Positions 5,302-61,296 of a stretch of 64,000 bases of DNA are shown piece after piece; the stretch's first letter is position 1, and each line of letters begins with the position of its first letter. The DNA comes from a phage. The position numbers were made by a program, and so were the translations under genes. The notes under the pieces were generated by a model. The model was not told where the DNA came from and searched no databases. It worked only from the letters and a program-made list of their open reading frames with translations. The stretch lies in sequence record PQ724393.1; one strand, 5' to 3'.

Positions 5302-5330
5302 ATTATAACATGGCCCTCGATAAAGTAAAC
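5302..5330 (-). promoter_or_regulatory. early promoter (GTTTAC-17-TATAAT)
   Basis: Perfect -35/-10 with 17-nt spacer upstream of ORF 4693..5259. Confidence 0.6.
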
Positions 5331-5332
5331 TA

Positions 5333-5884
5333 TTAATTCAATACGTTAACCACTGCACTACGAGGTACTACACTAAAATCACCAGCATGGACAACGTTCA
5401 GGAGTTCAACACCATCTTCAATCCACTGGTCTGTTACCCAACCGCAGATAGGGTTATCAAAAGGACGACGGATAGCCACAGCAGCACACAGAAGGTCGGT
5501 AGGGTCTTGTTCGACTTCGACTTCACGGAAAAGCCCAAATTCAGCTTCATAGACTAGGATTTTCTCTACTTTGTTATTATCTAACCGGCGGCCATGTATT
5601 ACGTAAGATTTAGTAAACCAGTCACTTTTGGCGAATTCTTCAACAATAAATTCGCCTTCGCCAAAAACATCAGTCAGAGTTTTATAACCGGAAATCAAGG
5701 CCTTAGTTTTAATTTCAGGTTCAACCAGTTTGTAGGTTTTGCCGATTTCGATAGTCTGAGTAGTCATAGCGGTTTCCTTAATTTCCAGTGGTTTAACAGG
5801 GCATACATAAGTGCTTAAAACATCAAAATCAATCAGTTTAGCTGCCGGATTCGGGGTGTATTTAGGGTTGTAATTAAATTTCAT
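5333..5884 (-). CDS. hypothetical protein (183 aa), tandem paralog B
   Basis: C-terminus WVTDQWIEDGVELLNVVHAGDFSVVP; ATGA overlap with upstream ORF. Confidence 0.6.
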   Translation of the reverse strand: MKFNYNPKYTPNPAAKLIDFDVLSTYVCPVKPLEIKETAMTTQTIEIGKTYKLVEPEIKTKALISGYKTLTDVFGEGEFIVEEFAKSDWFTKSYVIHGRRLDNNKVEKILVYEAEFGLFREVEVEQDPTDLLCAAVAIRRPFDNPICGWVTDQWIEDGVELLNVVHAGDFSVVPRSAVVNVLN

Positions 5885-6390
5885 AATTTTCTCATTTCAA
5901 TAAAATCTACGAGTTCGGCATAGGATTTGCGGAACATTACTTGGCGGCCACCAATGACAACCTCATCTTCAGGTATTTCGTAAACAGCAAGGTAGAATCC
6001 TTTAGAAGATAATTCTTCGCGCTCTTCACGAGTGAACCAGCGCATCATATCATACTCACTGGCAAAAGCAAAATGGTAGAGGTTAACAAACCAGCCTGGA
6101 ATATAATCGTCGCAGCCTTCATAATCAGGCCGTTTCCACTTAGTTCTAATGGTTTTATTAGAATTTTCTACCAGCAACGTATCTTGACTTGGTAGTGGGA
6201 TATTTTTATTAATGCTATGATGATGTCTAAAAATAGGTCTGTCTAAACCTACTTCTAATAACCAGCCTTCACTCCACGAGTCTGTTGTACTTCTATACGG
6301 GGTCATTTGAGTACAGAGGTCTCGTCGTATTGTGATAGCGTTTCCATCATCTAAGATACTGAACGATGACTCAACTCGATAAATTTTCAT
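5881..6390 (-). CDS. hypothetical protein (169 aa), MotB-position
   Basis: ORF with SD GAGGAG and conserved early promoter upstream; size and position like T4 motB but identity not verified. Confidence 0.55.
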   Translation of the reverse strand: MKIYRVESSFSILDDGNAITIRRDLCTQMTPYRSTTDSWSEGWLLEVGLDRPIFRHHHSINKNIPLPSQDTLLVENSNKTIRTKWKRPDYEGCDDYIPGWFVNLYHFAFASEYDMMRWFTREEREELSSKGFYLAVYEIPEDEVVIGGRQVMFRKSYAELVDFIEMRKL

Positions 6391-6416
6391 TTTGTTCTCC
6401 TCATGTTGATAGGGTT

Positions 6417-6445
6417 ATAGTATCATGCCATGAGGAGAAGTAAAC
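6417..6445 (-). promoter_or_regulatory. conserved early promoter
   Basis: Coding strand GTTTAC-17-TGATACTAT; arms CTCCTCATG/CATGAGGAG flank the -10 and include the SD. Confidence 0.6.
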
Positions 6446-6449
6446 ACTT

Positions 6450-7124
6450 TTATCGATTTTTTACACTTAATGGGTCTGGATTCTCAGGAACATCTTCCAG
6501 GTTTAAAGCATATCGTTGGGCATATTTAAGCATCAAGATATCCTTAGCACAGTCATGGATAGAGTCATGAGCAACAAAGCCATTCAAGGTTCCGTTAGGC
6601 AGAGGGCACATGCTCAATCCGCGCGTTAGTGAGTACGCTTCAACGGCCGTACGGATATCGCGTTGGTTCCAGAATTTAACCGGTTCTAATTTACTGGTAT
6701 CAATTTCATTCTCAGGAACACCTTCAGAACGATAAGCATCGCGAATAAGGTCGACTAAGATAGGAAAGTCAAATGACATTCCACGACACCACATCTGTGA
6801 TTTCCACTGGTCTACATCATTTTTACGGCAATATTCTAAGAAGTTGCCGATGCCGATAGAAGTGCTCACATCCATTTCGGACGGCGCCAGGTTTTTACGT
6901 GCTTCGGGCCCTTGTTCTTTCCACCACTGTAAAGTGCTTTTAGAAAACAGTCGTTTATCACGTTGAGAAGCTAGGTCAAATTTAATACGAAGGCCTCGTT
7001 GAGTAAGCTCTTCAAACGTTTCTACTACCTCTGGATTTGGGTCGTAAGCAATTACGGCTAGGTCAATAACCGCCGCATTTTGGGTAGTGGCAAAGGTTTC
7101 GAAGTCAATAATTACATCTTTCAT
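6450..7124 (-). CDS. dexA: exonuclease A (DEDDh 3'-5' exonuclease)
   Basis: 224 aa; VIDLAVIAYDPNPEVVETF and FVAHDSIHDCAKDILMLKYA match recalled T4 DexA. Confidence 0.8.
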   Translation of the reverse strand: MKDVIIDFETFATTQNAAVIDLAVIAYDPNPEVVETFEELTQRGLRIKFDLASQRDKRLFSKSTLQWWKEQGPEARKNLAPSEMDVSTSIGIGNFLEYCRKNDVDQWKSQMWCRGMSFDFPILVDLIRDAYRSEGVPENEIDTSKLEPVKFWNQRDIRTAVEAYSLTRGLSMCPLPNGTLNGFVAHDSIHDCAKDILMLKYAQRYALNLEDVPENPDPLSVKNR

Positions 7125-7360
7125 TTAACGTACCTCATAAGGTCACGGATTTGACCAACGGTGTAGTCTTCAATATAAACTGAAGAGATATTGTCGTCCA
7201 TTAGACGCTGTATTGCGATAAAATCACTTTCAATCTCTTTAAGAGAATGCAAGACCTTATGAGCCTTGCCACGGATATTTGTATCGTCTTGGTTGACCTT
7301 AATAATATATTCTGTTTCAAATTTCAACTTATAAAATTGGTCTTTAGTTACTTTAATCAT
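7121..7360 (-). CDS. hypothetical protein (79 aa)
   Basis: In-frame ATG 7360 with SD GAGGA overlapping dda stop; track start extends into dda. Confidence 0.5.
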   Translation of the reverse strand: MIKVTKDQFYKLKFETEYIIKVNQDDTNIRGKAHKVLHSLKEIESDFIAIQRLMDDNISSVYIEDYTVGQIRDLMRYVK

Positions 7361-7367
7361 ATTTTCC

Positions 7368-8699
7368 TCAAACATAGTAGGCATCAGTACGAGCACGAGT
7401 AATACTAACATAAGCTAGCTGTGAAGCTAAATTCGCATCAGCCATGTGCATACATGGGGTATAGATGAAACTGTTCCGGACAGTAAGACCCTGTGATTTA
7501 TGGACGGTACTCACCGGAAGAGCCCGAACCTTAGTGAACATTCGCTTGGCTTTCCAGAAATCAGCCCACTTAGGTTTCTTACCTGTTCCACGCATAGCTT
7601 TGTACTCTGTAGCAACCTTAGCCAAGAAATAATGGAACTTCTCAACTGAAGCCTCATCGATAACCTTTAAATGCTCTACATAGTACTCGTCGTCTTCATC
7701 AACAGATTCTACTTGTAGGTCCCAGTAATTAATCATTTGACGAGTGCCTACGTCCTTAGCAGACAAGAACAATGAGGTATGATTCACATCCAGAATACGA
7801 ACCATTTGCCCGTTATTAAAAATGGTTTCAGAGAATTTCTTACCGTCGTATTCGAGCTCCTTCATAAAAGGCTCTTGCATCACGAGGATTTCACCCTTGA
7901 TATAAGGTGCATCAGTTTCATAAAGCTTTTTACGAATAATGCTATTCAGCTTTTCAACCGATTTATTTGTATAAGCAAACATCCTATTTTCAAATAAGGC
8001 ATCCGCGTCTTTTACGATGGAAAAATAATTCATCATAAAATCTTTTAAAGCCGTTTGAGATTTAAAACCATGGACCCCGTGACCTTCGAATATACAATCT
8101 CGGAACCATCCACCATTACGGATTTCAGTAGCAACCTCAATGATAGGGGCATTACTACGCATTACTTCAGTAAGGTGCAGCTGTTTAATTTTAGGATGAG
8201 TAAAGAACGGAGATAACTGCGGACTACCATCACTTCCAGGTTCTACCGGTTGTAGCTGAGCTCTGTCGCCAATCCCTAATACAGTGCACCATGGTGGCAC
8301 GGAGGATTCAATAATCTTAAACAGCTTACCGTCAATCATCGAGCCTTCATCAACAACTAACACATTGCATTTGCTCAAGTCAGGAGCTTCGCGTTGTTCA
8401 AAGATATCCTGGTCCTCGTATGTAGTAGGGTTAATCTTTAAGATTCGGTGGATTGTTGATGCTTCTTGGCCTGCGAGTTTCGACAATACCTTCTTGGCCG
8501 CATGTGTAGGGGCGGTCAAAATAACTCCGAGTTCACCGTTCTTGACTAAGTGGTCAAGGATAAATTTAGTAAGGGTCGTTTTACCTGTACCCGCAGGACC
8601 ATTCAATGTAATCCATTCGCCCTTACGTCGTTTAATAGCTTCAATGATTTCTTTAAAGGCCGTCCGTTGCCCAATATTCAAGTCTTCAAATGTAATCAT
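7368..8699 (-). CDS. dda: Dda DNA helicase (SF1)
   Basis: 443 aa; Walker A NGPAGTGKTT; N-terminus similar to recalled T4 Dda. Confidence 0.92.
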   Translation of the reverse strand: MITFEDLNIGQRTAFKEIIEAIKRRKGEWITLNGPAGTGKTTLTKFILDHLVKNGELGVILTAPTHAAKKVLSKLAGQEASTIHRILKINPTTYEDQDIFEQREAPDLSKCNVLVVDEGSMIDGKLFKIIESSVPPWCTVLGIGDRAQLQPVEPGSDGSPQLSPFFTHPKIKQLHLTEVMRSNAPIIEVATEIRNGGWFRDCIFEGHGVHGFKSQTALKDFMMNYFSIVKDADALFENRMFAYTNKSVEKLNSIIRKKLYETDAPYIKGEILVMQEPFMKELEYDGKKFSETIFNNGQMVRILDVNHTSLFLSAKDVGTRQMINYWDLQVESVDEDDEYYVEHLKVIDEASVEKFHYFLAKVATEYKAMRGTGKKPKWADFWKAKRMFTKVRALPVSTVHKSQGLTVRNSFIYTPCMHMADANLASQLAYVSITRARTDAYYV

Positions 8700-8995
8700 G
8701 CCAATTTTACTCGCTTAACATATAAAGTGTCTAAAATCAATTTTAATTCTCGGGCCCGTTCTTTGGTAGGAAAAACTGTTTTAGTTTCCCACTTATCAAA
8801 CCACCATTTTCTTGGCGTGCACACTGTTTCAAGGCGTCCAAGCCGAAGATATCTTTTTGTTGAGATTTCATAAGCCTCTAAAGCAGTGTCGGCTCCAATC
8901 TTTGACGAATACAAAGTCACTTCACCGGCATCTTCTAATGGAATTTCATACCCGTCTTTGTCCTTGTGAACTAATACATATGCATAGTACATCAC
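8696..8995 (-). CDS. hypothetical protein (99 aa)
   Basis: ORF coupled to dda by overlapping start/stop. Confidence 0.55.
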   Translation of the reverse strand: MMYYAYVLVHKDKDGYEIPLEDAGEVTLYSSKIGADTALEAYEISTKRYLRLGRLETVCTPRKWWFDKWETKTVFPTKERARELKLILDTLYVKRVKLA

Positions 8996-8996
8996 G

Positions 8997-22151: not shown

Positions 22152-22684
22152 TTATTCACCTTATTTTCAATATATTCGTTCAGACGTTTTAATTCTACCA
22201 TATCAACATTAAGCAAATTATTATGGCCGTCATGATTTAAGATTTTAAACACGTTTTCAAAACATGTTTCGTATTGCTGGATAGTTAGGTTGAACTCATC
22301 TTTGGTTAATTTAATAAGGTCATCTTCGAAGTCTTCGTCTAATGGGTTGCGAGTTAAAATAACTTCGATAACGTTAAATTCAGATTTAAACCCTTTCCAA
22401 TCTTCCAGTTCTACATAAGGGTCCATTTCACCACGAAGGAATCCCGAGTAAACAATATTACTAGGATACCCACGGTCTAAGATGTAGACAAAATTAGGGT
22501 CTAAAAACTTATACAGAGTTTCAACTAAAGCCTTGTCATTATCAGTCCCTAATGAAATGCATTTGCCATTAATCTTTTTAGGGAAATCAATAAGACGATA
22601 TTTCTTATCAGATAAAAGTGATTCAATTAAAGTAGACTTCCCGGAATTATCCGGGCCGTCGATAACAATGATTTTTGGTTTCAC
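22148..22684 (-). CDS. P-loop kinase (thymidylate/dNMP-kinase-like)
   Basis: 178 aa; Walker A IIVIDGPDNSGKST, DRGY motif; GTG start overlapping upstream stop. Confidence 0.6.
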   Translation of the reverse strand: MKPKIIVIDGPDNSGKSTLIESLLSDKKYRLIDFPKKINGKCISLGTDNDKALVETLYKFLDPNFVYILDRGYPSNIVYSGFLRGEMDPYVELEDWKGFKSEFNVIEVILTRNPLDEDFEDDLIKLTKDEFNLTIQQYETCFENVFKILNHDGHNNLLNVDMVELKRLNEYIENKVNK

Positions 22685-25574: not shown

Positions 25575-25604
25575 ATACTACCACGTTCCTTGTGGTATGT
25601 AAAC
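25575..25604 (-). promoter_or_regulatory. early promoter upstream of imm-like gene
   Basis: GTTTAC-18-TAGTAT. Confidence 0.5.
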
Positions 25605-31707: not shown

Positions 31708-31769
31708 AATATTTTCTCTCATTTGGTTGGTAGATGTATTATAAATCAATATTTTAAAGCACTTAACGT

Positions 31770-35258: not shown

Positions 35259-35300
35259 ATGTTCTCCTCAGTTGGTTCATTTTATCATCCCGAATATAAA

Positions 35301-35328
35301 GCAAAAAAGGAAGCCCTAGGCTTCCTTT
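35301..35328 (-). terminator. rho-independent terminator
   Basis: AGGAAGCC-TAGG-GCTTCCT followed by TTTTTTGC. Confidence 0.65.
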
Positions 35329-37976: not shown

Positions 37977-38044
37977 AATAATTTCCTCAGTTTAAAATTT
38001 ATAATCCATGGGACCATTATACTCTGGTCCCAAGAGTTTGTAAA

Positions 38045-38293
38045 CTATTTTTGTGCTAATGCACCTTTCCAACCTTCGTACATCGCCGCAGCCGATATTA
38101 ATATTGCTCCTGCGCATTTTGAATATTTGTTATTCCAAAACCAGTTTAGAAAAACTTCGTCATCAATACCTTGGGCTATCATATTTTCAAAGAATTGACG
38201 ACGAGCTTCAGCAACACGTTGTGATAATTTAGATTCAGGATTCATTTTAAATTTTCCAGTTACCGTTTTCATCAATAAATTTAATCCAGTCAT
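38045..38293 (-). CDS. hypothetical protein; start uncertain
   Basis: Track ORF; alternative ATG at 38245 lies just after upstream stop. Confidence 0.45.
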   Translation of the reverse strand: MTGLNLLMKTVTGKFKMNPESKLSQRVAEARRQFFENMIAQGIDDEVFLNWFWNNKYSKCAGAILISAAAMYEGWKGALAQK

Positions 38294-38385: not shown

Positions 38386-38679
38386 TCAGCTGTAACGATA
38401 ACATTCGTTTGATTTACGTTTTGCAACTTGATGAGAAGTATTGTAATCAGGTTCATCGTCGTTGTAAACATCTTTTTTCAGCTTTCTCACTTCTTTACGA
38501 AGTTGGCGATTCATTTCATTCTTAACTTCAGAATCAACACCACGCATACGTTTCCACTTGTCAGAACGGAAGATATTTTCCTCAACCAGTTCCTGACTTA
38601 CACCGTCGGGCGCTTTACGGCGTCCGGAATAATAAAAATCTTTTACAGACAATTCTTTACGGCGAATAGTTTTACCCAT
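38386..38679 (-). CDS. hypothetical basic protein (97 aa)
   Basis: Track ORF. Confidence 0.5.
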   Translation of the reverse strand: MGKTIRRKELSVKDFYYSGRRKAPDGVSQELVEENIFRSDKWKRMRGVDSEVKNEMNRQLRKEVRKLKKDVYNDDEPDYNTSHQVAKRKSNECYRYS

Positions 38680-39115: not shown

Positions 39116-39144
39116 AATGTTCTCCTCATGTGTTGATAGGATAG

Positions 39145-39173
39145 ACTATAACACGTGAGGAGAGGAAGTAAAC
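39145..39173 (-). promoter_or_regulatory. conserved early promoter
   Basis: GTTTAC-17-TATAGT; flanking arms CCTCACGTG/CACATGAGG. Confidence 0.55.
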
Positions 39174-43127: not shown

Positions 43128-43157
43128 ATTATACTCCATCCGTCCTTGGATGTAAAC
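43128..43157 (-). promoter_or_regulatory. early promoter (GTTTAC-18-TATAAT)
   Basis: Upstream of ORF 42089..43099. Confidence 0.55.
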
Positions 43158-45666: not shown

Positions 45667-45692
45667 GATAACCTCCAGTAGTTGATAGGTCT

Positions 45693-45721
45693 ATAGTATC
45701 ATTTCTACTGGAGATGTAAAC
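45693..45721 (-). promoter_or_regulatory. conserved early promoter
   Basis: GTTTAC-17-TGATACTATAGACCTATCAAC; arms CTCCAGTAG/CTACTGGAG. Confidence 0.6.
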
Positions 45722-47093: not shown

Positions 47094-47122
47094 ATAATAA
47101 CATGCTCTACGAGGTTGTAAAC
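47094..47122 (-). promoter_or_regulatory. putative early promoter
   Basis: GTTTAC-17-TATTAT upstream of P-loop NTPase gene. Confidence 0.45.
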
Positions 47123-47140: not shown

Positions 47141-47165
47141 CAAAAAAGGACCCCGAAGGGTCCTA
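47141..47165 (-). terminator. rho-independent terminator
   Basis: AGGACCC-TTCG-GGGTCCT followed by TTTTTTGGG. Confidence 0.7.
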
Positions 47166-47387: not shown

Positions 47388-48369
47388 GATACACCTCTTC
47401 GACGAACTTGTCCCAGAACTTCATGTCCACCTTCGCAGGCATACCGTTCTTAGCAGCCCAGATGGCATTGGTTTCGACTTCGTCTACAATAGCTTCAAGT
47501 TCGGCCTGCACATCTTTAAAAGCATGTAACCCCTGTTTGATTTCAAGGATAAATGGCGCAGTACGTAAAGGGTATTGAAGGTCACCAGTTTGATAGATTT
47601 CCTTCAACTGGTATCCGGCCCTATAAGCATGACTCAGAGCTTTCCAGTCAATACCTTCATTGGCTTCTGCCTTACGAGCACGTTCACCATATTCGGCGTC
47701 AAGCTTATTCAGAGATTGCTTGAGCTCGATTAATGACAAAGTAGTCTGATATTTACGTCCGAGAACAGTATAGAACGTTTGTGGGCCTGTTTTCTCATGG
47801 TTATGGAATACCCATTCACAGAATTCGTTTTCAGGGAGCCGATGTTTGATATCTTCTACCTTAGTGCGACGAAGACGGTCCGGAATTCCTTCTTGATAAT
47901 CAACCCATTGTTCAGGAATCTGGTTGACTATTGCCAATACACCACGCAGAGCAGCCAGTCGAGAACCTTTAACACCATATTTGGAAGCTTGCTTGCGGAC
48001 ATACCCTAAATAGGCTTTCATGTTGGTTGTATAGAACCGTGAACGGTTGTCTTGGATAAATTTCCATACGTCAGGTAAATCGGATTTGACAACCAGGTCA
48101 GCCGGTGTGTGAATCATGTCCAGGGCAACGGTTTCGCCATCGGCTGCCAGTTTAAAGAAATATTTCAGACTATAAAGTTCATGGTCAACATCATCTTTTG
48201 TATTTTTGGTAGCCGTGTTATTCGTGTTCAGGTTTGTATGGTTCATAGCCGTACCTAACAGAATATCACGCGGATGTGGAACAAAGATTTCTTTAAAATC
48301 GATATCAGATTCCGGAGTACTTGTTCCATAAAGGTGGGAGCCAAAATATCCCTTCATAACTGTTCTCAT
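47359..48369 (-). CDS. nucleotidyltransferase-fold protein (Pol-beta superfamily)
   Basis: 336 aa; N-terminal FGSHLYGTSTPESDIDF (GS-x9-13-DxD signature). Confidence 0.6.
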   Translation of the reverse strand: MRTVMKGYFGSHLYGTSTPESDIDFKEIFVPHPRDILLGTAMNHTNLNTNNTATKNTKDDVDHELYSLKYFFKLAADGETVALDMIHTPADLVVKSDLPDVWKFIQDNRSRFYTTNMKAYLGYVRKQASKYGVKGSRLAALRGVLAIVNQIPEQWVDYQEGIPDRLRRTKVEDIKHRLPENEFCEWVFHNHEKTGPQTFYTVLGRKYQTTLSLIELKQSLNKLDAEYGERARKAEANEGIDWKALSHAYRAGYQLKEIYQTGDLQYPLRTAPFILEIKQGLHAFKDVQAELEAIVDEVETNAIWAAKNGMPAKVDMKFWDKFVEEVYLDNHNSYYR

Positions 48370-49133
48370 TATTCACCTCTTTCATAGTCTTCAATAAATT
48401 GCATAATTAAACGTTGATAGTTGGATTTGGGATATCCTAATTTACTAATATAGGTTCCGAAAGCTCCACGCTTAGGCCTATTTAATTTAACCCATAAAGA
48501 ATAAAGCAAATCATAATCTTGCCAATGTTTCCCTATTCTTTGCTTTGCTTTAGAAGCATCAGATTGCCTCTTTTTAGTCTCTGGATTATTTAGAGATTTC
48601 TTAACAGCATTCGAATGCCTTTCTCTAACATCAGGGCGTTTAAATGCTTCTTTAATAGCTTTAGAAATTTTCTCTTTAACTTCAGGACGGTTTTGAGCTT
48701 CTATTTGAGCCGCCGACATTTTATCTTTTATTTCTGGTAGACTCATAGTTATAGAACGTTTATTTCTATATTCTTCAGTCTTCCATATTTCTTTCATCGT
48801 ATTTGAGTGAATTTCTGAAAATTTTTCTCTAACTAATTGATACCCTCTAGAAGTTAGTTTAAGATTTCTTCCTAAAGAATCCTCGCCAAAGTTATAAAAT
48901 GACCACCAGGCATAAATTAATCCTGAAGAATCAGAATGAATTCTAGCTAGAAGCCAGTGTGCTATAAAATGTTCTCTAGCTGTCAACAGAACCAAATTAT
49001 TAGGTTCATCACTCCCGCCAATACATGACGGGATTATATGATGGGACTCTGTATAAAAATTTAATTTGGATTTGTCTAATCCTCTAAGTTTACCTCTTTG
49101 GATTAGACTATCATAAAGCTTGGTATAATTCAT
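48369..49133 (-). CDS. HNH homing endonuclease (Mob-like)
   Basis: HNH core ESHHIIPSCIGGSDEPNNLVLLTAREHFIAH; repetitive basic C-terminus; no SD before ATG 49133. Confidence 0.7.
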   Translation of the reverse strand: MNYTKLYDSLIQRGKLRGLDKSKLNFYTESHHIIPSCIGGSDEPNNLVLLTAREHFIAHWLLARIHSDSSGLIYAWWSFYNFGEDSLGRNLKLTSRGYQLVREKFSEIHSNTMKEIWKTEEYRNKRSITMSLPEIKDKMSAAQIEAQNRPEVKEKISKAIKEAFKRPDVRERHSNAVKKSLNNPETKKRQSDASKAKQRIGKHWQDYDLLYSLWVKLNRPKRGAFGTYISKLGYPKSNYQRLIMQFIEDYERGE

Positions 49134-49591
49134 TATGGATTTGTTTTGTCCTCGAAGTGGATTACAGGACACATCTTAGATTTACGAGCTTTAATGTATT
49201 GAATAACGATATTTTCTTTAGTTTCTCGGCCTTCACGCTCAGCTTGAATACGTTGCCATTCCTTTTCTTCTCTACGGGCATCATACCATGCGTGTAAATT
49301 CATCGCACCAAATGCCAAACCGATGGATAGTGCAATAATAAGAGCTATTACAATCAACCCTAAAACAAACCCTAGACTCAACAGAACAGGAGTACTTAAT
49401 ACAAAGAAATGCTCTAATACACCAGCTCCTGCAACAGTTAATCCAAAAAGCGTACTACCTGCAACAACAGCACAAGCAAAACAAGCCCAAATCATTTTCC
49501 AGAAATATGCACATAAAGAGTGTGGTCGAGAATGGCTGTCATAAAAACGGTCGTGTAATTTAACGTGCCAAGAGTTTGAATTGATAATCAT
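49133..49591 (-). CDS. membrane protein (152 aa)
   Basis: SD AAGGAAA; long hydrophobic segments then basic tail. Confidence 0.55.
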   Translation of the reverse strand: MIINSNSWHVKLHDRFYDSHSRPHSLCAYFWKMIWACFACAVVAGSTLFGLTVAGAGVLEHFFVLSTPVLLSLGFVLGLIVIALIIALSIGLAFGAMNLHAWYDARREEKEWQRIQAEREGRETKENIVIQYIKARKSKMCPVIHFEDKTNP

Positions 49592-51127: not shown

Positions 51128-51156
51128 ATAGTATCACGTTCCTAGAGGATGTAAAT
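51128..51156 (-). promoter_or_regulatory. conserved early promoter (variant -35 ATTTAC)
   Basis: ATTTAC-17-TGATACTATAGACCTATCAAC. Confidence 0.55.
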
Positions 51157-51162
51157 ACCTAA

Positions 51163-51193
51163 ACGAAAAAAAGGTCCCACCGAAGTGAGACCT
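51163..51193 (-). terminator. rho-independent terminator
   Basis: AGGTCTCAC-TTCG-GTGGGACCT followed by TTTTTTTCG. Confidence 0.65.
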
Positions 51194-51197
51194 TTGA

Positions 51198-51861: not shown

Positions 51862-51953
51862 ACAAAAGTCCTTTGTTGTTTTATACTATTTGCCTTTCGG
51901 CCTTAACCGATAGCGATTACCAAAAGCTAAAGCTCTACGGTTAGTATTATTAT

Positions 51954-52232
51954 TTATAGCTTTTTAAGCTTACGACAATAAGAATAGAACACGTCGTTAA
52001 AATTATGCTCAACCCAATTCCTCTGTATAGGCGAGGTAATGGAAAGCATATAATGGGCTTTAATTAAATCCATCCCATTTTTATTAGGACATTCTTTATT
52101 ATTAGCATTATACGTCGCCGCTACAACCTCTATCTCTCTTTTGTAAGCCACATCATCCATGATAGGCGAAAGAACAATATAAGAAATAGCCACAGCGAAC
52201 GCTAGAATTAAAATCTTTGAATTTAGGTCCAT
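51954..52232 (-). CDS. small membrane protein (92 aa)
   Basis: N-terminal TM helix. Confidence 0.5.
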   Translation of the reverse strand: MDLNSKILILAFAVAISYIVLSPIMDDVAYKREIEVVAATYNANNKECPNKNGMDLIKAHYMLSITSPIQRNWVEHNFNDVFYSYCRKLKKL

Positions 52233-53613: not shown

Positions 53614-54064
53614 AATCCACCACTATTAAATCAATATCAGGGGTAAACATGTCGATTAATTTAGAAACCTTTTCCCAATCACCGCCAGCAATACCACAAC
53701 CGATGCGAGGAATATAAATTCTTGGTTTAAACAAAAGGGTTTCTGCTTGTAGATTTAATTCTATCATACAGTTTACTAAAGCACCGTAATCAAGATTAGG
53801 GCCGGGTTCGTATTGGGTGTATAAATTATAGCACATTGCAAATCCATTAGGCTTATGTTTAAAAACAATAGACATATCGCCTAATTTATCACGAGAACCG
53901 TATTCAGTAGTGGTCTTATCAATTTCTAAGATTTTAGGATAGGCTCTTGCTAATTGACCGGCCACGCCTGAACCCATAGTATGAAAACAGTTGCACCCAT
54001 GTGCAATAATATTACCTTGGAGAAACAGGGCGACGATATCGCCCTTAATATAATCAATAATCAT
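53585..54064 (-). CDS. macro-domain protein (ADP-ribose binding/hydrolase fold)
   Basis: 159 aa; NIIAHGCNCFHTMGSGVAGQL and PRIGCGIAGGDW match macro-domain signatures. Confidence 0.65.
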   Translation of the reverse strand: MIIDYIKGDIVALFLQGNIIAHGCNCFHTMGSGVAGQLARAYPKILEIDKTTTEYGSRDKLGDMSIVFKHKPNGFAMCYNLYTQYEPGPNLDYGALVNCMIELNLQAETLLFKPRIYIPRIGCGIAGGDWEKVSKLIDMFTPDIDLIVVDYESTLPASV

Positions 54065-54957: not shown

Positions 54958-54969
54958 GAGACCTCATTA

Positions 54970-55428: not shown

Positions 55429-55456
55429 TTTGTAATCTCCTGTAGTTGATAGGTCT

Positions 55457-55485
55457 ATAGTATCATGTCTACAGGAGATGTAAAC
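55457..55485 (-). promoter_or_regulatory. conserved early promoter upstream of regB
   Basis: GTTTAC-17-TGATACTATAGACCTATCAAC; arms CTCCTGTAG/CTACAGGAG. Confidence 0.65.
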
Positions 55486-55490
55486 TGCTT

Positions 55491-55769: not shown

Positions 55770-55984
55770 TTCACTTCCTCATCAGATGCAATATCATATT
55801 CTACAAAACGAAGGCCATCGTATCCACCACTAACAGAGATATACGTAGTCGGGTAAACAATTTCTTTACCATTCCATTGACCGCCGTCCCAACATTCCAT
55901 AAAGCCTTGTTCGCCCTGTTCGTGGAACCAGTCAACAAACATCTTCAGAGCTTCATCAGAGCCTTCAATTGTCAATTTAGACAT
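55766..55984 (-). CDS. hypothetical protein (72 aa)
   Basis: Track ORF. Confidence 0.5.
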   Translation of the reverse strand: MSKLTIEGSDEALKMFVDWFHEQGEQGFMECWDGGQWNGKEIVYPTTYISVSGGYDGLRFVEYDIASDEEVK

Positions 55985-56273
55985 ATTTTTTCCAGTCAGA
56001 AATCATATGAATCTCTTGGTCATACGTCAAGAGACTGCGAGTAATAATACCCTTGCACGGCCCAGAGATGAACTCGAGAGTGAAGTAAGGAACCTGTTTC
56101 ATTAATCGGATGCTTGGGGCATGGCATCTAAAACGAGAGCCCTTAAAGGGCCCTGACATGAATACATATTCTAATGGATAGAAATAAGCATATTCGAAAT
56201 TTGCAGTAAGGTCCTCTCTTCGAACCTTACGTGAGAAATAACAGAACTCAAAAAGTTCTTCATCAGTCATCAT
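55977..56273 (-). CDS. hypothetical protein (98 aa)
   Basis: Track ORF. Confidence 0.5.
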   Translation of the reverse strand: MMTDEELFEFCYFSRKVRREDLTANFEYAYFYPLEYVFMSGPFKGSRFRCHAPSIRLMKQVPYFTLEFISGPCKGIITRSLLTYDQEIHMISDWKKYV

Positions 56274-56797
56274 TGCATTCCTATCACAAAGAACAGCGGC
56301 AGAGGTTTAGAACCCTGGCACATAAATTTGTTAATCATTACCTGGTAAGCTTCATAGAACTTATCCATCGATGGAAGGCGCATTGGCTCTTCGATAATAA
56401 TCAATAATCGAGTAACTGATAGACCACGATACTTATGGAAGTTATCTTCGTCTAAAAATGATCGCACGGTATCATATACAATAAACCCAGGACCTTCTAC
56501 TTGAAGATGTGGATGAGCCTTAGAAACCCTTTTTATTACATTACAGATTTCGCGTGACCGGTGCGAAGAACTCGACATAACAATCACATCATTACCCTTG
56601 GAAACCCAATCAGCTGCGAACTGGGCAAGGGCACTTGTTTTACCTGTTTGGCGTCCGCCGTCAAGTCGAAGAGTACCAAACTCTTGCATTCTTGAAGTAG
56701 GTTCGTACCAGGTGTATTGGTTTGAGTCTAATCGTTCAATGGCGCGTTCAGCGAAGGCGTGCATTAAGGTTAGATAAATGGGAGTTAAAAATTTCAT
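56270..56797 (-). CDS. P-loop NTPase-like protein (175 aa)
   Basis: Walker A GGRQTGKTSA; Walker B-like LLIIIEEP. Confidence 0.5.
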   Translation of the reverse strand: MKFLTPIYLTLMHAFAERAIERLDSNQYTWYEPTSRMQEFGTLRLDGGRQTGKTSALAQFAADWVSKGNDVIVMSSSSHRSREICNVIKRVSKAHPHLQVEGPGFIVYDTVRSFLDEDNFHKYRGLSVTRLLIIIEEPMRLPSMDKFYEAYQVMINKFMCQGSKPLPLFFVIGMQ

Positions 56798-56946
56798 AGT
56801 GGTCTCTTAGTTGTGGGGCCATTCCTTGGCACATAATTCATCCCTTTCTGCATTTACCCATTACCGCACTTGGGCTCGACCTTATTACAGGTTGGTGGGA
56901 GTCCCTCACGGAATTGTGAGGTCCAGGTTGCTCCCATTTTTAAAGA

Positions 56947-57306
56947 TTAAAGATGGTCGAGTGCCGGATTATGAGGCTTTTCTGCTTTAGCAGTATTTTT
57001 GTGCCAATCCGATTTAGAAACACGAATTGCATCCGCACCGTAAGAGCTCTTAAGGAGGCCCTTTTTATTGTAAACACTTATAGAAGTAAGGGTGTCACCA
57101 TTCCAAGTAGCATGGACGAAGTTGGATTTAGATTTAAGTTCTTTAGCCAGGCTCTGGTTGGTAGCCATAGAAGCAAAGTCTTTACCTGTAACTTTAAAAA
57201 CTTCAGATGGGTTCAGCCCTTCTTTAGCCTTAGCCAATTGTTCAGGAGACATAGCTTCGTTAATGCGCTGAGTAGATTCAGTAATAAATTGTTGGTAAGT
57301 TTTCAT
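56947..57306 (-). CDS. ipII: internal head protein, IpII-like
   Basis: N-terminal MKTYQQFITE matches T4 capsid-targeting sequence (MKTYQEFIAE); 119 aa. Confidence 0.6.
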   Translation of the reverse strand: MKTYQQFITESTQRINEAMSPEQLAKAKEGLNPSEVFKVTGKDFASMATNQSLAKELKSKSNFVHATWNGDTLTSISVYNKKGLLKSSYGADAIRVSKSDWHKNTAKAEKPHNPALDHL

Positions 57307-57320
57307 ATTATTCCTTAAGT

Positions 57321-57350
57321 TGATAGAAGTATTCTACCACGGATTTAATT
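57321..57350 (-). promoter_or_regulatory. putative promoter upstream of ipII-like gene
   Basis: ATTTAC-18-TAGAAT. Confidence 0.45.
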
Positions 57351-57765
57351 AAGCGTAAATAGCCTTGCCATAGTGTTTGTACCAGGTAGGACGTTGTGCA
57401 ATTTTTTCATCCAAACGGGTTTGTGAAATAGCGATAGAAGCTTCGTGAGGAGCATAATCACCACGGAATTCCTGAGGAATATCACTAATGTCCTGGACCG
57501 TAGTATCTTTGATATTAAAGCCACGTTTTAAACATTCGGCTATAAGCTCGATTTGACGCTTACGTAAAAATTCAAGCTTATCGTAAAAGAATGTAACATG
57601 GCCTGCGCCAAGGATAAAAGTAGGACTGATTTTGAAATCACGGACACGTTTACCATTAGCAACATGCTTACGAACTGCACCGAAAACACGTGGTAATTCA
57701 CGATATTCAGCCATTAAGTGTTGGTCAGCCAATTCAGATACTAAGGTAAGGTTGATACGAGTCAT
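57349..57765 (-). CDS. denV: endonuclease V (pyrimidine-dimer DNA glycosylase)
   Basis: 138 aa; [67 protein letters not shown]... nearly identical to recalled T4 DenV. Confidence 0.95.
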
Positions 57766-57792
57766 TTTTAATCTCCTGTAGTTGATAGGTCT

Positions 57793-57821
57793 ATAGTATC
57801 ATGTCTACAGGAGATGTAAAC
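57793..57821 (-). promoter_or_regulatory. conserved early promoter upstream of denV
   Basis: Same 41-nt block as 55457 promoter. Confidence 0.65.
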
Positions 57822-57845
57822 AACTTTTATCAAGTATCGGCTTTA

Positions 57846-58442
57846 TTAATTACCACGGGCTGCATTAGCAACGGCGTAAGCGTACTGAACATTAGCGTCT
57901 TTAAACGTACCTTTAGAGGTATCTATTTCTGCCTTAAAGCCACCTTTAGCCATAACATCAGCAAATTCTTTACGGAAAGCCATTGCATCAAGACCTTTCC
58001 ATGATGATTTGTGCTTGGCAAATTCAAGACCGGCGAAGTTGACAGCCTTAGCCAATTTATTATCAATAGTCCATTTACCTGCTTTAGGTACAACTACCGG
58101 GCCTTTTTGTTTAGAGAACAGTTTTAAATTCCAGCGACGAAGGTCGCCGTCAGCTTTAACAAAAGCTGCGTCCAAGTTACTAGCAACAACATCCTGAATA
58201 TGGCCAAATTTAAGCCCATCAGCTTCAATATTTAGGTCGTTACGCCAGCGAAGTCCTTCCCAGGCGAAAGCTTTAAAGTCAGAAGCTTTTGTAGCTAAAT
58301 ACCGTTCAATAGGAGCTGTTTTAGCGTCAAAACCATTTCCTGGGTTGTCAACGCCATTTCCTCGGTAGGTCCACTCATCTTTATTAATGCCTTGGACCTT
58401 TCCTACAGAAGCTTCGGCGATAAATTCTTTATACGTTTTCAT
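57846..58442 (-). CDS. ipIII: internal head protein, IpIII-like
   Basis: 198 aa; N-terminal MKTYKEFIAEA capsid-targeting sequence. Confidence 0.65.
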   Translation of the reverse strand: MKTYKEFIAEASVGKVQGINKDEWTYRGNGVDNPGNGFDAKTAPIERYLATKASDFKAFAWEGLRWRNDLNIEADGLKFGHIQDVVASNLDAAFVKADGDLRRWNLKLFSKQKGPVVVPKAGKWTIDNKLAKAVNFAGLEFAKHKSSWKGLDAMAFRKEFADVMAKGGFKAEIDTSKGTFKDANVQYAYAVANAARGN

Positions 58443-58495
58443 ACGGGTTCCTTAAAGGTAAATATTTTAATTAGTCTGTTCAATTAACTGTAGAT

Positions 58496-58524
58496 ATACT
58501 ATCACAATTCTAGGAGATGTAAAC
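58496..58524 (-). promoter_or_regulatory. early promoter upstream of ipIII-like gene
   Basis: GTTTAC-17-TGATAGTAT. Confidence 0.5.
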
Positions 58525-58529
58525 TGCTT

Positions 58530-59018
58530 TTATCTATAAGCGGCCCAAGTACCTGTTTTAAATGTTGAAATCACGCGCTTAGCACGGTTAGGGGTTTGCT
58601 TGTACCAACGAGATTGAGCCAGGTTAACTGCCGCATCGTTCCAACGTTTCTGTTGGAGCATACGTAAAGAGTTAGTGAACCCTGCTACACCTGCTTCACC
58701 CATTTGGAAGACCATGTTAATTAAAGCACAACGACGAACTTCATCGAGCACATCATAAACAGGTTTCAATTTAGGATTACGCAGAATAGCTCTACGAGCA
58801 TTATCAACCGACCGGTTAAAGAGTTGTTCTGCTTCAGCCATAGTAATACGACCATTACAAACTCGACCCATAAGCTTATCAAGTTCAGCGCGGGCAACAT
58901 CTTTAGATGGGTTCTTGGTAACTAACTGGCCAATACCAATAGTCCAATAACCTTCAGTGTCTTTATAAAGATTTAAATCAAGACCTTCGTCTTGACGTAA
59001 CATATCAAAAATATCCAT
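58530..59018 (-). CDS. e: lysozyme (endolysin) e
   Basis: 162 aa; [51 protein letters not shown] match recalled T4 lysozyme; SD AGGAGG. Confidence 0.95.
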
Positions 59019-59020
59019 AA

Positions 59021-59048
59021 TACCTCCTGAGTATAGGAGGTATTTATA
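59021..59048 (-). promoter_or_regulatory. gene e late promoter (TATAAATA) plus RBS-sequestering hairpin
   Basis: Coding strand GATATAAATA then ACCTCCT-ATACTC-AGGAGGT, where the second arm is the SD of e. Confidence 0.6.
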
Positions 59049-59498
59049 TCAAAAGAGCGAATCTAAAACCTTAAACATCGACGGGCCCATGACATATTTC
59101 CATTGTGGACGTTTAATCAAGGCAAAAGCATCGAATTCAGGAATCGTACGACCATCAGGGAACGTATGGTAAGCTGTACATTTGCAATTCTTGAACTGCT
59201 CGTGTTCCACAGGCACTGTATATAAGAACAGATGTAGATTCTTATTGCTTGAATATTTGAACTCACCTAGGTCTTTCAGGAATGCAGGATCGTATGCCGT
59301 GAATCCAATCTCTTCTTCGGTTTCACGCATTGCGGCTTGAATAGGCTCTTCGCCTGGTTCTACATGACCTTTAGGAATGTCCCATTTATGACGCATGTTC
59401 TCTGGATTACGAGAGCCTGTTACACGACCCATAACTAGTTCTTTATCAACGGTCATGAACAAAATACCGGCAGATAGTTCTTTAACTTTCTTACTCAT
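59049..59498 (-). CDS. nudE: Nudix hydrolase NudE (e.1)
   Basis: Start reset to ATG 59498 (8-nt overlap with upstream stop); Nudix box GHVEPGEEPIQAAMRETEEEIG. Confidence 0.8.
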   Translation of the reverse strand: MSKKVKELSAGILFMTVDKELVMGRVTGSRNPENMRHKWDIPKGHVEPGEEPIQAAMRETEEEIGFTAYDPAFLKDLGEFKYSSNKNLHLFLYTVPVEHEQFKNCKCTAYHTFPDGRTIPEFDAFALIKRPQWKYVMGPSMFKVLDSLF

Positions 59499-59727
59499 CG
59501 TCTCGTTCCCACGATTGTTTAAAGATATCTTGCATAATAATTTGAAGTCTATTTTCTGATGATGGACTTTCACTATCAGACACTTGAAGCATATAGTCAC
59601 CAATAGGACAGAACATATCCATATCGCTTTCTAAGTCTTCTTTGATTTTCTCTTCTGACGTTCCGGTATCATAGGAATACAGATAAGAATCACATGACTC
59701 AGATTTAATATAAATTGCAATACTCAT
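59491..59727 (-). CDS. hypothetical acidic protein (78 aa)
   Basis: Track ORF. Confidence 0.45.
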   Translation of the reverse strand: MSIAIYIKSESCDSYLYSYDTGTSEEKIKEDLESDMDMFCPIGDYMLQVSDSESPSSENRLQIIMQDIFKQSWERDDE

Positions 59728-60317
59728 TTACGGCATTCCTTAATAAACTCATTTAAATTATGTTTGTTTTTACCTTCGTCGTAAAGACGTTGTTGACGAC
59801 GTAAACGCCATGGCATTTCAATAGCCAAGCACCAAATACTTAAAGCAGCGCCAGCTGTGAAAAGATTCATTAATCCGGCGCCAATAATAGTTCGTTCTAG
59901 CGCATCATTCCAGTTAGCATCGATTAAAAATGAACTCAACACTAACATTGGAAGTAAAGTAATAAAATACGCTACAACATATCGTCCGAACGTAAGCCAT
60001 TCAGTATCGATGAGCTTAGCCTTTCCATCTTGGAGACAAATATACTTATCGTCAGTGCGGGTGATTTTCTTTACCGGTTGCCAACCATTTACGATATAAC
60101 CCATTCTGAACTCCTCAATTAAAAGCTGTTTCATTTCGGCAGTACAACCTGACCAATCTATTGTACTGGCTGAAATTCCTTCATCACAGTCATCGATATT
60201 TCGCCAGGACTTTTTAATAATCATATGTTCACCACTTGGGATAATAATTCCAGCATTTTCCGACCGACGGATGAAGTTTGTATCAATACCCATACAACCA
60301 GGTTCATAAAGGGCCAT
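59724..60317 (-). CDS. membrane protein (197 aa)
   Basis: Two C-terminal TM helices. Confidence 0.5.
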   Translation of the reverse strand: MALYEPGCMGIDTNFIRRSENAGIIIPSGEHMIIKKSWRNIDDCDEGISASTIDWSGCTAEMKQLLIEEFRMGYIVNGWQPVKKITRTDDKYICLQDGKAKLIDTEWLTFGRYVVAYFITLLPMLVLSSFLIDANWNDALERTIIGAGLMNLFTAGAALSIWCLAIEMPWRLRRQQRLYDEGKNKHNLNEFIKECRK

Positions 60318-61003
60318 TACCAGCCCTCCATAGGAAATTCCAGATATACTTGAGCATTAACGCGGATTTCATTTGTAATCTTTTTAACACGGTCGGTATT
60401 ACGAGACACACGACCAAACCAGCGCCACCCGTTACTTACTGCACGAGAACCTGTATGCCATGTTTGCCAATCAAACTGGAGTAACGTGCGGTCAGGAGCA
60501 TCCCACTTGGTTAATTCATTGGACTCAATTTTTTCCAGAACTTCTTTATGCCACTGGCGATAGATAAGTTCGCCTTCAGGAATCTGACTGAACTGTGCAG
60601 TTCCGGTTGCAAAATGAGTAGGACACACATCAGCATTAACAAGACCAAGAATATGTTCAGAATGGTATCGAGGATTATCATAATCAGGTTGCCCTGCGGT
60701 AATAAAGTGTTGACCCACCGGAATATCTGGACGTGGTACATCATCATGGTGGAAGCCTGGAATTGCAGGGTACCAGCCGGGCATTAACATGTGTACACGG
60801 GAATCAAATACGCATTCAACGGCTTTCCACTCATCAGGGAGATTAGTAATAAAGCTACGAGTAATAGGACCACCATTTTGTGCAGCAAAATTCAAATCAC
60901 AGTTAAAGAACATAGGCTCGTTTTTAATATCATCATTAGAAATATGACCTGCAAAACCACCTACTGCACGAGCTTTAGAATTAAAAGTTTTTGGACCGTT
61001 CAT
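60317..61003 (-). CDS. putative Fe(II)/2-oxoglutarate-dependent oxygenase-like protein
   Basis: 228 aa; candidate HxD (GFHHDD) and distal His/Arg (WHTGSRAVSNGWRWFGRVS); SD GAGGAAAA. Confidence 0.5.
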   Translation of the reverse strand: MNGPKTFNSKARAVGGFAGHISNDDIKNEPMFFNCDLNFAAQNGGPITRSFITNLPDEWKAVECVFDSRVHMLMPGWYPAIPGFHHDDVPRPDIPVGQHFITAGQPDYDNPRYHSEHILGLVNADVCPTHFATGTAQFSQIPEGELIYRQWHKEVLEKIESNELTKWDAPDRTLLQFDWQTWHTGSRAVSNGWRWFGRVSRNTDRVKKITNEIRVNAQVYLEFPMEGW

Positions 61004-61017
61004 AATATTTTCCTCAC

Positions 61018-61230
61018 TTACTTTTTGTTGAAAAAGTACATTTTACCTTTAGGAGATAAGGATACACGAAGGGCGTTACCAATACCAACTGAACATTTAA
61101 CCAGGTCAGCAGATTTCAATTCACCAAATGCTTGACGAAGGTCTCCATCACGAGTGTTAACCATCAGGCATTTAGCACCAGCTGCACGAACTTCGTTTAA
61201 CATGTTGATTGCTTGGTTAGAAAGTTTCAT
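61018..61230 (-). CDS. hypothetical protein (70 aa)
   Basis: Start reset to ATG 61230 with SD GGAGAA; track start lies in promoter. Confidence 0.5.
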   Translation of the reverse strand: MKLSNQAINMLNEVRAAGAKCLMVNTRDGDLRQAFGELKSADLVKCSVGIGNALRVSLSPKGKMYFFNKK

Positions 61231-61267
61231 TTTATTCTCCATTTCACTCTGTTGTTTTGATAGGTCT

Positions 61268-61296
61268 ATAGTATCACACCTATAGACCTTGTACAC
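61268..61296 (-). promoter_or_regulatory. conserved early promoter (variant -35 GTGTAC)
   Basis: GTGTAC-17-TGATACTATAGACCTATCAAAAC; inverted repeat GGTCTATAG/CTATAGACC. Confidence 0.5.

Follow-up and report, generated by a model that had tools for sequence, protein, structure and literature searches.

Early promoters of bacteriophage T4 carry GTTTAC at positions -36 to -31, an A-rich block at -40 to -44 and a C-rich stretch at -3 to -1 (PMC1524935), and they have been termed "uber" promoters of the UP/-35/TGn/-10 type (PMC2988021). The early promoter consensus published for phages PST and T4 is TTTACW-N17-TAYWAT (PMC4122927). PeSLs are repeated composite elements in which an AT-rich block, an early promoter, a stem-loop, a Shine-Dalgarno sequence and a start codon are combined, and they mediate gene shuffling (Arbiol et al., Comeau et al.). 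Here we analyze a family of sequences of this kind in a 64,000-nucleotide stretch of phage DNA (sequence record PQ724393.1, hereafter the window), for which a sequence-only reading had proposed about 20 near-identical early promoters between positions 5302 and 61296.

In the PeSLs of phages RB49 and phi1 the stem-loops are located between the -35 and -10 elements or overlap the -10 box, the stem-loop of PeSL211/210 lowers downstream lacZ expression about as strongly as the terminator rrnB T1, and recombination crossovers have been mapped in or beside the stem-loops (PMC2839356). The published stem-loops of the PST/T4 PeSLs are terminators upstream of the promoter (PMC4122927). In the T4 genes e, soc, 49 and I-TevI the Shine-Dalgarno sequence is masked by a hairpin with a late promoter inside it; long transcripts are masked, and internally started ones are open (PMC3014915). 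The consensus of strong RegB/S1 sites is GGAGRAYARAA, and early T4 mRNAs are cleaved after its GG, as GG/AGRAYARAA (PMC3014915). RNA structure shields from RegB.

The predicted early promoter family

A profile (nhmmer) was trained on 19 hand-picked copies, chosen from a listing of all GTTTAC occurrences with their context, and was run against the whole window. It returned 22 matches with E<0.01 and two more at E 0.011-0.034, in agreement with the proposed count of about 20. All 24 are on the minus strand, and the top plus-strand match has an E-value of only 1.7. Seed copies match the profile by construction; independent evidence comes from the strand bias and from counts of exact patterns. The non-seed sites recovered by the profile were 51156, 61296, 38469 and 4679 (copies are named by the first base of their -35 element).

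The pattern GTTTAC-N13-15-TGATACTAT has seven exact matches in the window; if up to three mismatches are allowed, the 22-mer ATGATACTATAGACCTATCAAC has nine. All of these lie on the minus strand, and the expected number is 0.00 in both cases. The literal search pattern of the sequence-only reading, GTTTAC-N17-TGATACTAT, is 3 nucleotides (nt) off the actual spacing, which is GTTTAC-N14-TGATACTAT, and its N16-19 variant yields no match in the window. The 17-18 nt spacer extends from GTTTAC to the -10 hexamer TACTAT, and TGA is thus part of the spacer; the length that had been given is correct when counted to this hexamer and incorrect when counted to TGATACTAT. Presence of the motif family far above chance, on the minus strand and at the coordinates below, is confirmed. 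The predicted early promoters, with -35 element/spacer length/-10 hexamer and the downstream gene or open reading frame (ORF), are as follows.

62441-62470, minus strand: doubtful copy, GTTTAC/18/TATAAT, E=0.72; no clear downstream start codon
61268-61296, minus strand: early promoter, GTGTAC/17 with TGn/TACTAT; before a 70-amino-acid (aa) ORF, 61018-61230
58496-58524, minus strand: early promoter, GTTTAC/17/TAGTAT; before the ipIII orthologue (ATG 58442), positional orthologue of T4 site 66498
57793-57821, minus strand: early promoter, GTTTAC/17/TACTAT; before denV (ATG 57765), same sequence type as T4 denV site 65413
57331-57360, minus strand: weaker early promoter, ATTTAC/18/TAGAAT, E=0.011; before a 119-aa internal-protein-like gene (ATG 57306)
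55457-55485, minus strand: early promoter before regB (ATG 55428); 53 nt same as the 57821 copy
51128-51156, minus strand: early promoter, ATTTAC/17/TACTAT; before a 78-aa ORF, terminator 51170-51195 upstream
47094-47122, minus strand: early promoter, GTTTAC/17/TATTAT; before the nrdC.10 orthologue, terminator 47147-47164 upstream
45693-45721, minus strand: early promoter before the nrdC.8 orthologue (ATG 45666)
43128-43157, minus strand: early promoter, GTTTAC/18/TATAAT; before the nrdC.4 orthologue
39145-39173, minus strand: early promoter, GTTTAC/17/TATAGT; before the 55.6 orthologue
38440-38469, minus strand: weak candidate promoter, GTTTAC/18/TACAAT, without TGn, E=7e-4; 61 nt to the start of the 55.4 orthologue
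38016-38045, minus strand: early promoter, GTTTAC/18/TATAAT; before the 55.2 orthologue
25575-25604, minus strand: early promoter, GTTTAC/18/TAGTAT; between gene 43 (just upstream) and the imm orthologue
17500-17528, minus strand: early promoter directly 3' of gene 41; terminator 17542-17559 upstream
16542-16571, minus strand: early promoter, GTTTAC/18/TACTAT; before the sp orthologue
12998-13027, minus strand: early promoter, GTTTAC/18/TAAGAT; before the mrh.2 orthologue, terminator 13042-13061 upstream
11151-11179, minus strand: early promoter, GTTTAC/17/TATAAT; before a ModB-like gene
10525-10554, minus strand: early promoter, GTTTAC/18/TACTAT; before a second Mod-like gene
9787-9815, minus strand: early promoter before the srd orthologue
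6417-6445, minus strand: early promoter before the motB.2 orthologue (ATG 6390)
5302-5330, minus strand: early promoter, GTTTAC/17/TATAAT; before the motB orthologue
4650-4679, minus strand: early promoter, GTATAC/18/TAAGAT; before a 22-codon hydrophobic mini-ORF, then a 73-aa ORF
1350-1379, minus strand: early promoter, GTTTAC/18/TAGGAT; downstream of gene 39, hairpin and T-run 1388-1401 upstream

The ends of the span proposed earlier are the last -10 base of the 5330 copy and the first -35 base of the 61296 copy; additional copies are found beyond it, at 4679 and 1379 and, a weak one, at 62470.

GTTTAC is exact in 19 of the 24 copies and has a single mismatch in five (ATTTAC, GTGTAC, GTATAC). 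A TAnnnT hexamer, mostly TACTAT or TATAAT, follows in every copy, after 17 nt in 13 copies and after 18 nt in 11. The -10 element is extended by TG at -15/-14 in 21 copies, the remaining three having AG, GA and AT. Upstream of the -35 region there is an UP-like A-rich block with the consensus aaaaA at about -44 to -40, which is replaced by a T-run in copies that come after a terminator. Downstream of the -10 box the consensus (a/g)gaCCTATCAAC, with CCTATCAAC at the predicted start, is followed by a Shine-Dalgarno sequence of the GGAG type, and for 22 of 24 copies a start codon is found 17-61 nt downstream on the same strand, mostly 24-30 nt after the -10 hexamer. The dominant sub-family in the window is TGATACTATAGACCTATCAAC, and the preferred -10 hexamer of the window copies is TACTAT. 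Copies 57821 and 55485 are identical over 53 consecutive nt from the G of the -35 element (minus-strand string GTTTACATCTCCTGTAGACATGATACTATAGACCTATCAACTACAGGAGATTA), and copy 45721 is a close variant that matches 57821 at 51 of 60 positions. The three example regions of the sequence-only reading (55441-55490, 57781-57830 and 45675-45721) do carry the motif on the minus strand; the near-identity that it claimed applies to such sub-groups and not to the entire family, because spacers and 5' untranslated regions (5'UTRs) vary among copies.

The stretch at 50-60 kb matches T4-like coliphages, the best match being phage fDHCT2 (97.7%); genes annotated under this match are ipIII, tk, e, regB and vs, and denV is also in the region. 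The region of gene 43 (DNA polymerase) shows 98.8% identity to phage LQ5 and about 97% to QL01 and WG01, and AnYang, another close match to it, is classified in Dhakavirus, Tevenvirinae. The minus strand encodes all genes of the window, a layout shared with the T4 early region. Judged by these matches, the window is the early (prereplicative) region of a T-even phage of the Dhakavirus group.

We scanned T4 bases 1-72000, for which the RefSeq record has no promoter features, with the window-derived profile and found 21 sites, all on the early-gene strand. In tblastn searches with the proteins encoded downstream, 13 window sites proved to stand before a gene whose T4 orthologue likewise follows one of these T4 sites (ipIII, denV, regB, nrdC.10, nrdC.8, nrdC.4, 55.6, imm, sp, mrh.2, modB, motB.2 and motB). 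Three further sites match T4 by position only: one after gene 41, one after gene 39/60 and the terminator-plus-promoter before the 78-aa ORF. The window copies share with T4 early promoters the GTTTAC -35 element, TGn, the TAnnnT -10 box, the UP-like A-rich block, the conserved start region and the location on the early-gene strand. They differ in the distance from GTTTAC to the -10 box, which is 17 nt in 13 of 24 window copies and 18 nt in 20 of 21 T4 sites.

The anatomy thus agrees with that of published T4 early promoters and supports the T4-type assignment made by the sequence-only reading. We consider it highly probable that the copies are T4-type early promoters set in PeSL-type cassettes and read by unmodified host sigma-70 RNA polymerase right after injection. 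Each cassette would then open a new early transcription unit for the gene immediately downstream, with transcription predicted to begin at the A of CCT-ATCAAC and a predicted 5'UTR of about 18-36 nt that includes the GGAG Shine-Dalgarno sequence. Several points count against this assignment. Three copies (62470, 38469 and 57360) are weak, and a generic sigma-70 scan of the window showed no enrichment (52 sites found versus 54.6 expected), so that only the phage-specific extended motif discriminates. The term "early promoter" itself draws on sequence, position and literature.

Two other origins of the copies deserve consideration. They could be middle (MotA/AsiA-dependent) promoters, or dispersed repeats other than promoters, such as remnants of mobile DNA. 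MotA-box-like sites (TGCTTNA, 11-13 nt, TAnnnT) are indeed present in the window, 10 against 3.0 expected, and the cassettes move among loci. However, the copies have GTTTAC at -35 and not a TGCTTtA MotA box at -30, the MotA-like sites are situated elsewhere, and the copies are oriented with, and immediately 5' of, genes having a Shine-Dalgarno sequence, at positions common to T4 early promoter-like sites; we regard this origin as very improbable. A CRISPR-like or other regularly spaced array could be suspected from short, similar and partly palindromic copies. It is refuted by the spacing, which is irregular (0.4-13 kb) with whole genes in between and each copy before a gene; moreover, the "repeat" itself varies and Rfam finds nothing in the window. 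The probability of such an array is negligible, and the sequence-only reading had rightly kept the two apart.

As a promoter family the copies are nothing new, since both the family and the cassette concept are known from earlier publications on T4 and related phages. For annotation of the phage, a map of about 22 early transcription units is of use, and GTTTAC-N14-TGATACTAT with its variants is specific enough to mark T-even early regions in raw sequence.

Two of the units have features of their own. Adjacent Mod-like (ADP-ribosyltransferase) paralogues at 10499-11179 have one early promoter each (11179 and 10554), unlike T4, where a profile site is found before modB only. The first ORF after promoter 4679 is a strongly hydrophobic mini-ORF of 22 codons (4543-4611, minus strand; MFAPYIMIAVIVICLYLLIKAC), which is followed by a second Shine-Dalgarno sequence and the 73-aa ORF.

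Cassette structure and probable exchange between loci

The window copies resemble the PeSLs of RB49/phi1, PST/T4 and nt-1/KVP40 in their composite layout, in the large number of repeats, in stem-loops located in the spacer, over the -10 box or upstream, and, in individual cases, in gene gain, loss and replacement. A Shine-Dalgarno sequence and a start codon stand at the 3' end of the cassette, as in the PeSL description. Stem-loops are found in two places. The duplex between a copy's own arms, within the spacer and downstream of the -10 box, reaches -10 kcal/mol or lower in 12 of 24 copies, and terminator-like hairpins lie upstream of the promoter at four sites, with a fifth hairpin at another.

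51170-51195, minus strand: intrinsic-terminator-like hairpin with TTCG loop and T-run, directly upstream of promoter 51156
47147-47164, minus strand: intrinsic-terminator-like hairpin with TTCG loop and T-run, directly upstream of promoter 47122
17542-17559, minus strand: intrinsic-terminator-like hairpin with TTCG loop and T-run, directly upstream of promoter 17528
13042-13061, minus strand: intrinsic-terminator-like hairpin with TTCG loop and T-run, directly upstream of promoter 13027
1388-1401, minus strand: similar hairpin with a shorter T-run, upstream of promoter 1379

A generic scan for terminator-like sites in the window showed no enrichment over shuffles.

Several differences from described PeSLs are also apparent. 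Unlike the PST/T4 PeSLs as published, about half of the window and T4 promoters also carry a co-varying repeat around the -10 box. The stems are not polyG/polyC, in contrast to RB49, and in a subset of window copies the 3' arm is the Shine-Dalgarno sequence, unlike in PeSLs as published. Termination or attenuation of upstream transcription by the stem-loop and formation of mini-circles by recombination between copies have been demonstrated by experiment for RB49/phi1 only.

Comparison with relatives points to exchange of cassettes. The regB and denV promoters, which share 53 nt in the window, have two different sequences in T4. The promoter of the 55.2 orthologue (38045) is the same as the T4 motB site over 40 nt, and the window motB promoter has a different spacer. 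Colinearity with fDHCT2, the closest relative, breaks at 57768 and 57832, that is, at both edges of the denV cassette; this relative carries ipII there, together with a denV promoter of another sequence. It also has another gene in place of the internal-protein-like gene that follows promoter 57360. In the comparison with T4, the breaks in colinearity fall at 57821 and 57809. These replacements at the denV/internal-protein locus and the promoter swaps are individual cases. The cassettes would act as PeSL modules, with copies exchanged or homogenized among loci and colinearity with relatives broken at their edges.

The 119-aa gene (56947-57306), located downstream of denV with its own promoter, begins with MKTYQQFITE, similar to the first residues of the ipIII orthologue, MKTYKEFIAE. 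The gene ipII is absent between ipIII and denV in the window and present there in T4 and fDHCT2.

Inverted repeats around the -10 box

About half of the copies have a spacer that can pair with their own sequence downstream, so that the -10 box comes to lie in a hairpin loop. We calculated the duplex energy of each spacer with the downstream region of every copy and compared own with permuted pairs. In the window, own pairs are at -10.8 versus -7.1 kcal/mol for permuted pairs (z=-7.0, with none of 20000 permutations as low), and in T4 at -10.2 versus -6.4 kcal/mol (z=-7.2). Scanning a sequence collection with GTTTAC-N17/18-TAYWAT-N3-CCTATCAAC gave 68 stretches, most of them on contigs of about 165-173 kb, a size typical of T4-like genomes; 67 non-redundant promoters from about 25 genomes of other T-even phages were taken from these loci. 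Here the mean of own pairs is -11.2 versus -7.5 kcal/mol for permuted pairs (standard deviation 0.30); none of 5000 permutations reaches the observed value, and energies of -10 kcal/mol or lower are found in 54% of own pairs and 22% of mismatched pairs.

Complementarity is retained while the sequence changes. At the regB promoter position there are six sequence versions across phages, every one self-complementary. Two arrangements can be distinguished. In type A the 3' arm is the Shine-Dalgarno region (copies 57821, 55485, 45721, 6445 and 39173 and, weaker, 11179), and in type B it covers the start region together with the last part of the -10 box (61296, 16571, 38045, 5330 and 4679, partly 17528, weakly 25604 and 13027). 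An alignment in the type A register (15 sequences, 11 pairs) shows compensatory changes at 5 of 11 pairs and 97% of cells paired; because sequences were admitted to it only with 9 or more of the 11 pairs formed, its evidential value lies in the covariation counts alone. The hairpins are listed below with folding energies where available.

57771-57815, minus strand: type A, 11-base-pair (bp) stem ATCTCCTGTAG/CTACAGGAGAT, -10 box in the loop and Shine-Dalgarno in the 3' arm; -19.3 kcal/mol, z=-3.9
55435-55479, minus strand: type A, before regB, arms as in the 57821 copy; -19.4 kcal/mol, z=-4.2
45671-45715, minus strand: type A, ATCTCCAGTAG/CTACTGGAGGT, compensatory T-A to A-T change relative to the 57821 copy
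39121-39163, minus strand: type A, CTCCTCA.GTGT with ACAC.TGAGGAG including the Shine-Dalgarno; -22.6 kcal/mol, z=-4.9
6395-6439, minus strand: type A, TTCTCCTCATG/CATGAGGAGAA, four compensated positions relative to the 57821 copy; -19.5 kcal/mol, z=-4.6
61262-61289, minus strand: type B, AGGTCTATAG/CTATAGACCT around the -10 box; -15.4 kcal/mol, z=-2.9
38009-38032, minus strand: type B, GGGACCAG/(A)TGGTCCC around the -10 box
16537-16562, minus strand: type B, GGTCTATGGTG/TACTATAGACC around the -10 box
5282-5330, minus strand: type B, GAGGGCCAT/ATGGCTCTC plus an outer stem around the -10 box, Shine-Dalgarno free; -21.7 kcal/mol, z=-3.7
4641-4668, minus strand: type B, GGTAGGGTA/TACCCTATC, position as in the 61296 copy with different arms; -16.1 kcal/mol, z=-3.5

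In cassettes with TGATAC...CCTATCAAC, the conserved TGATA at -15 to -11 can also pair with the conserved TATCA of the predicted start region, and the predicted folds show the two as an inner helix of 5 bp (for example, 57779-57802). This correlation is confounded, the collection scan itself having required CCTATCAAC. Searches of the window with Rfam at gathering thresholds and for tRNAs gave no match; the hairpins thus fall in no curated RNA family.

The nature of the mismatches bears on whether the repeat acts as RNA or as DNA. Interior mismatches in long ungapped stems of the collection sample are eight G·T, no A·C and two others, and every difference among motB promoter variants keeps wobble pairing on the sense strand; both favor a single-stranded sense molecule. 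In folding energy, a less clean strand test than the count of mismatch types, the sense strand has an advantage over the antisense strand in the window and T4 (p=0.003). The 5' arm is upstream of the predicted start, and the hairpin can therefore form only in RNA reading through from an upstream promoter. For such read-through RNA the predicted folding energies are -15 to -22.6 kcal/mol, and z lies between -2.8 and -4.9 in 9 of 10 tested copies; the fold of the tenth, 38045, is not significant (-17.1 kcal/mol, z=-1.8).

Action at the DNA level, as a cruciform or other structure tuning promoter melting, a site for a dimeric protein or a recombination site of the cassettes, is in our view unlikely. 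The repeat is centered on the -10 box, the colinearity breaks coincide with cassette edges, and the PeSL crossovers of RB49/phi1 lie in or beside stem-loops (PMC2839356), all of which would suit such a role. On the other hand, arm sequences vary among copies and orthologues, which argues against a sequence-specific protein site, and the excess of G·T over A·C mismatches indicates that pairing is kept on the sense strand only. The loops, moreover, measure 8-24 nt, and loops of this size disfavor cruciform extrusion.

For the RNA, the predicted probability of the Shine-Dalgarno sequence being unpaired is 0.27 in read-through transcripts and 0.52 in transcripts from the own promoter (p=0.0005). 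In five type A copies (57821, 55485, 45721, 39173 and 6445) the predicted value is 0.00, compared with 0.16-0.36 in chimeras with swapped spacers. In read-through RNA at these copies, which precede denV, regB and the nrdC.8-, 55.6- and motB.2-like genes, the hairpin would bury the GGAG of the Shine-Dalgarno sequence. With GGAG buried, the five genes would be translated and exposed to RegB mainly from own-promoter transcripts; as structure shields from RegB, the type A stems would hide GGAG from this nuclease in read-through RNA as well. At the other copies the hairpin would serve as an attenuator or a stabilizing structure, and throughout it would insulate neighboring early units.

Exact matches to the RegB/S1 consensus GGAGRAYARAA number four in the window (expected 0.53), and all four are Shine-Dalgarno regions in cassette 5'UTRs.

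61230-61240, minus strand: exact RegB/S1 consensus site in a cassette Shine-Dalgarno region
17475-17485, minus strand: exact RegB/S1 consensus site in a cassette Shine-Dalgarno region
6390-6400, minus strand: exact RegB/S1 consensus site in a cassette Shine-Dalgarno region
4612-4622, minus strand: exact RegB/S1 consensus site in a cassette Shine-Dalgarno region

As in T4, a GGAG Shine-Dalgarno is followed by A-rich sequence at these putative sites; unlike in T4, most cassettes fit the consensus only in part.

We tentatively propose that the repeat is an RNA device acting on read-through transcripts only, which in a subset of copies (those of the regB, denV, motB.2, nrdC.8 and 55.6 orthologues) limits translation and RegB exposure to transcripts from the own promoter. 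Several results stand against this proposal. The swapped-spacer control leaves the mean unpaired probability unchanged in the family as a whole (0.27 versus 0.25, p=0.64). Type B hairpins leave the Shine-Dalgarno sequence free and even tend to free it. In the broader set, sense folding has no significant advantage over antisense folding (p=0.07; G·U 31 versus 28). Finally, stems enclosing the -10 box are not followed by a U-tract and thus are not canonical intrinsic terminators, and they are not significantly mutually exclusive with upstream terminators (p=0.25). Predicted masking is thus a property of a subset: the notion that all hairpins mask the Shine-Dalgarno sequence was dropped, the difference having vanished with swapped spacers, and was kept for the five copies. 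The notion that the hairpin substitutes for an upstream terminator was likewise abandoned for want of a significant relation.

It is also possible, if doubtful, that the inverted repeat is mainly an attenuator or terminator for polymerases arriving from upstream, as in the original interpretation of PeSLs, and that masking of the Shine-Dalgarno sequence is incidental. The RB49/phi1 stem-loops occupy the same places, and that of PeSL211/210 cuts lacZ expression to a degree similar to rrnB T1 (PMC2839356); type B hairpins do not involve the Shine-Dalgarno sequence, and mismatches of the G·T type alone are compatible with a role at the RNA level. Against attenuation, the 3' arms have no U-run, unlike the terminators at 17542-17559, 13042-13061, 51170-51195 and 47147-47164, and the hairpins show no significant tendency to occur where upstream terminators are missing.

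Insulation of adjacent early units combined with translational gating in the type A subset may serve as a working model. Like T4 e, soc, 49 and I-TevI, type A copies have a promoter within a hairpin and the Shine-Dalgarno sequence in its 3' arm; unlike these genes, the embedded promoter is of the early sigma-70 and not the late TATAAATA type, only about 5 of 24 copies are concerned, and masking is predicted. If the RNA device proposed here is real, it would produce a sharp early pulse and extend the logic of a late promoter in a hairpin to early promoters across the subfamily, and the hairpin could explain insulation among densely packed early units. In the literature searched, which did not cover the main T4 genome review, neither the prevalence and covariation of repeats enclosing the -10 box in T-even early promoters nor a subset pairing with the Shine-Dalgarno sequence has been reported; on repeats of this kind in T4 it yielded the PeSL papers only. 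The hairpin is thus a modest lead beyond the known promoter family.

The T4 arrangement at gene e is kept on the minus strand of the window, at about 59016-59048. Here the hairpin ATACCTCC/GGAGGTAT, whose 5' arm is overlapped by a late TATAAATA promoter at 59041-59048, buries the Shine-Dalgarno sequence of the lysozyme gene e (ATG 59018). Further TATAAATA sites are found at 13331-13338 (before a soc-like ORF), 15392-15399 and 51951-51958.

Other features of the window

Eight of the ten MotA-box-like sites are on the gene strand, and several are in the block of replication genes at about 26-38 kb, where no early promoter copy occurs. The sites found by motif search include the following.

53758-53783, minus strand: MotA-like site
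48484-48508, minus strand: MotA-like site
35279-35303, minus strand: MotA-like site
31738-31761, minus strand: MotA-like site
22192-22215, minus strand: MotA-like site
3444-3468, minus strand: MotA-like site

Upstream of gene 39, a terminator-like hairpin (3472-3487) immediately precedes the site at 3444-3468, an arrangement that resembles the "PmSL" of phage nt-1.

A 775-bp segment at 48370-49145, colinear with T4 nrdC.11/mobD, is missing from fDHCT2. The 267-aa ORF at 48369-49172, which is mostly within this segment, is probably a mobD-like homing endonuclease. The ORF of the topoisomerase large subunit (1602-3419, 605 aa) aligns with both T4 gene 60 and T4 gene 39; the topoisomerase gene therefore appears to be unsplit, without the T4 mobA insertion or gene 60 arrangement.

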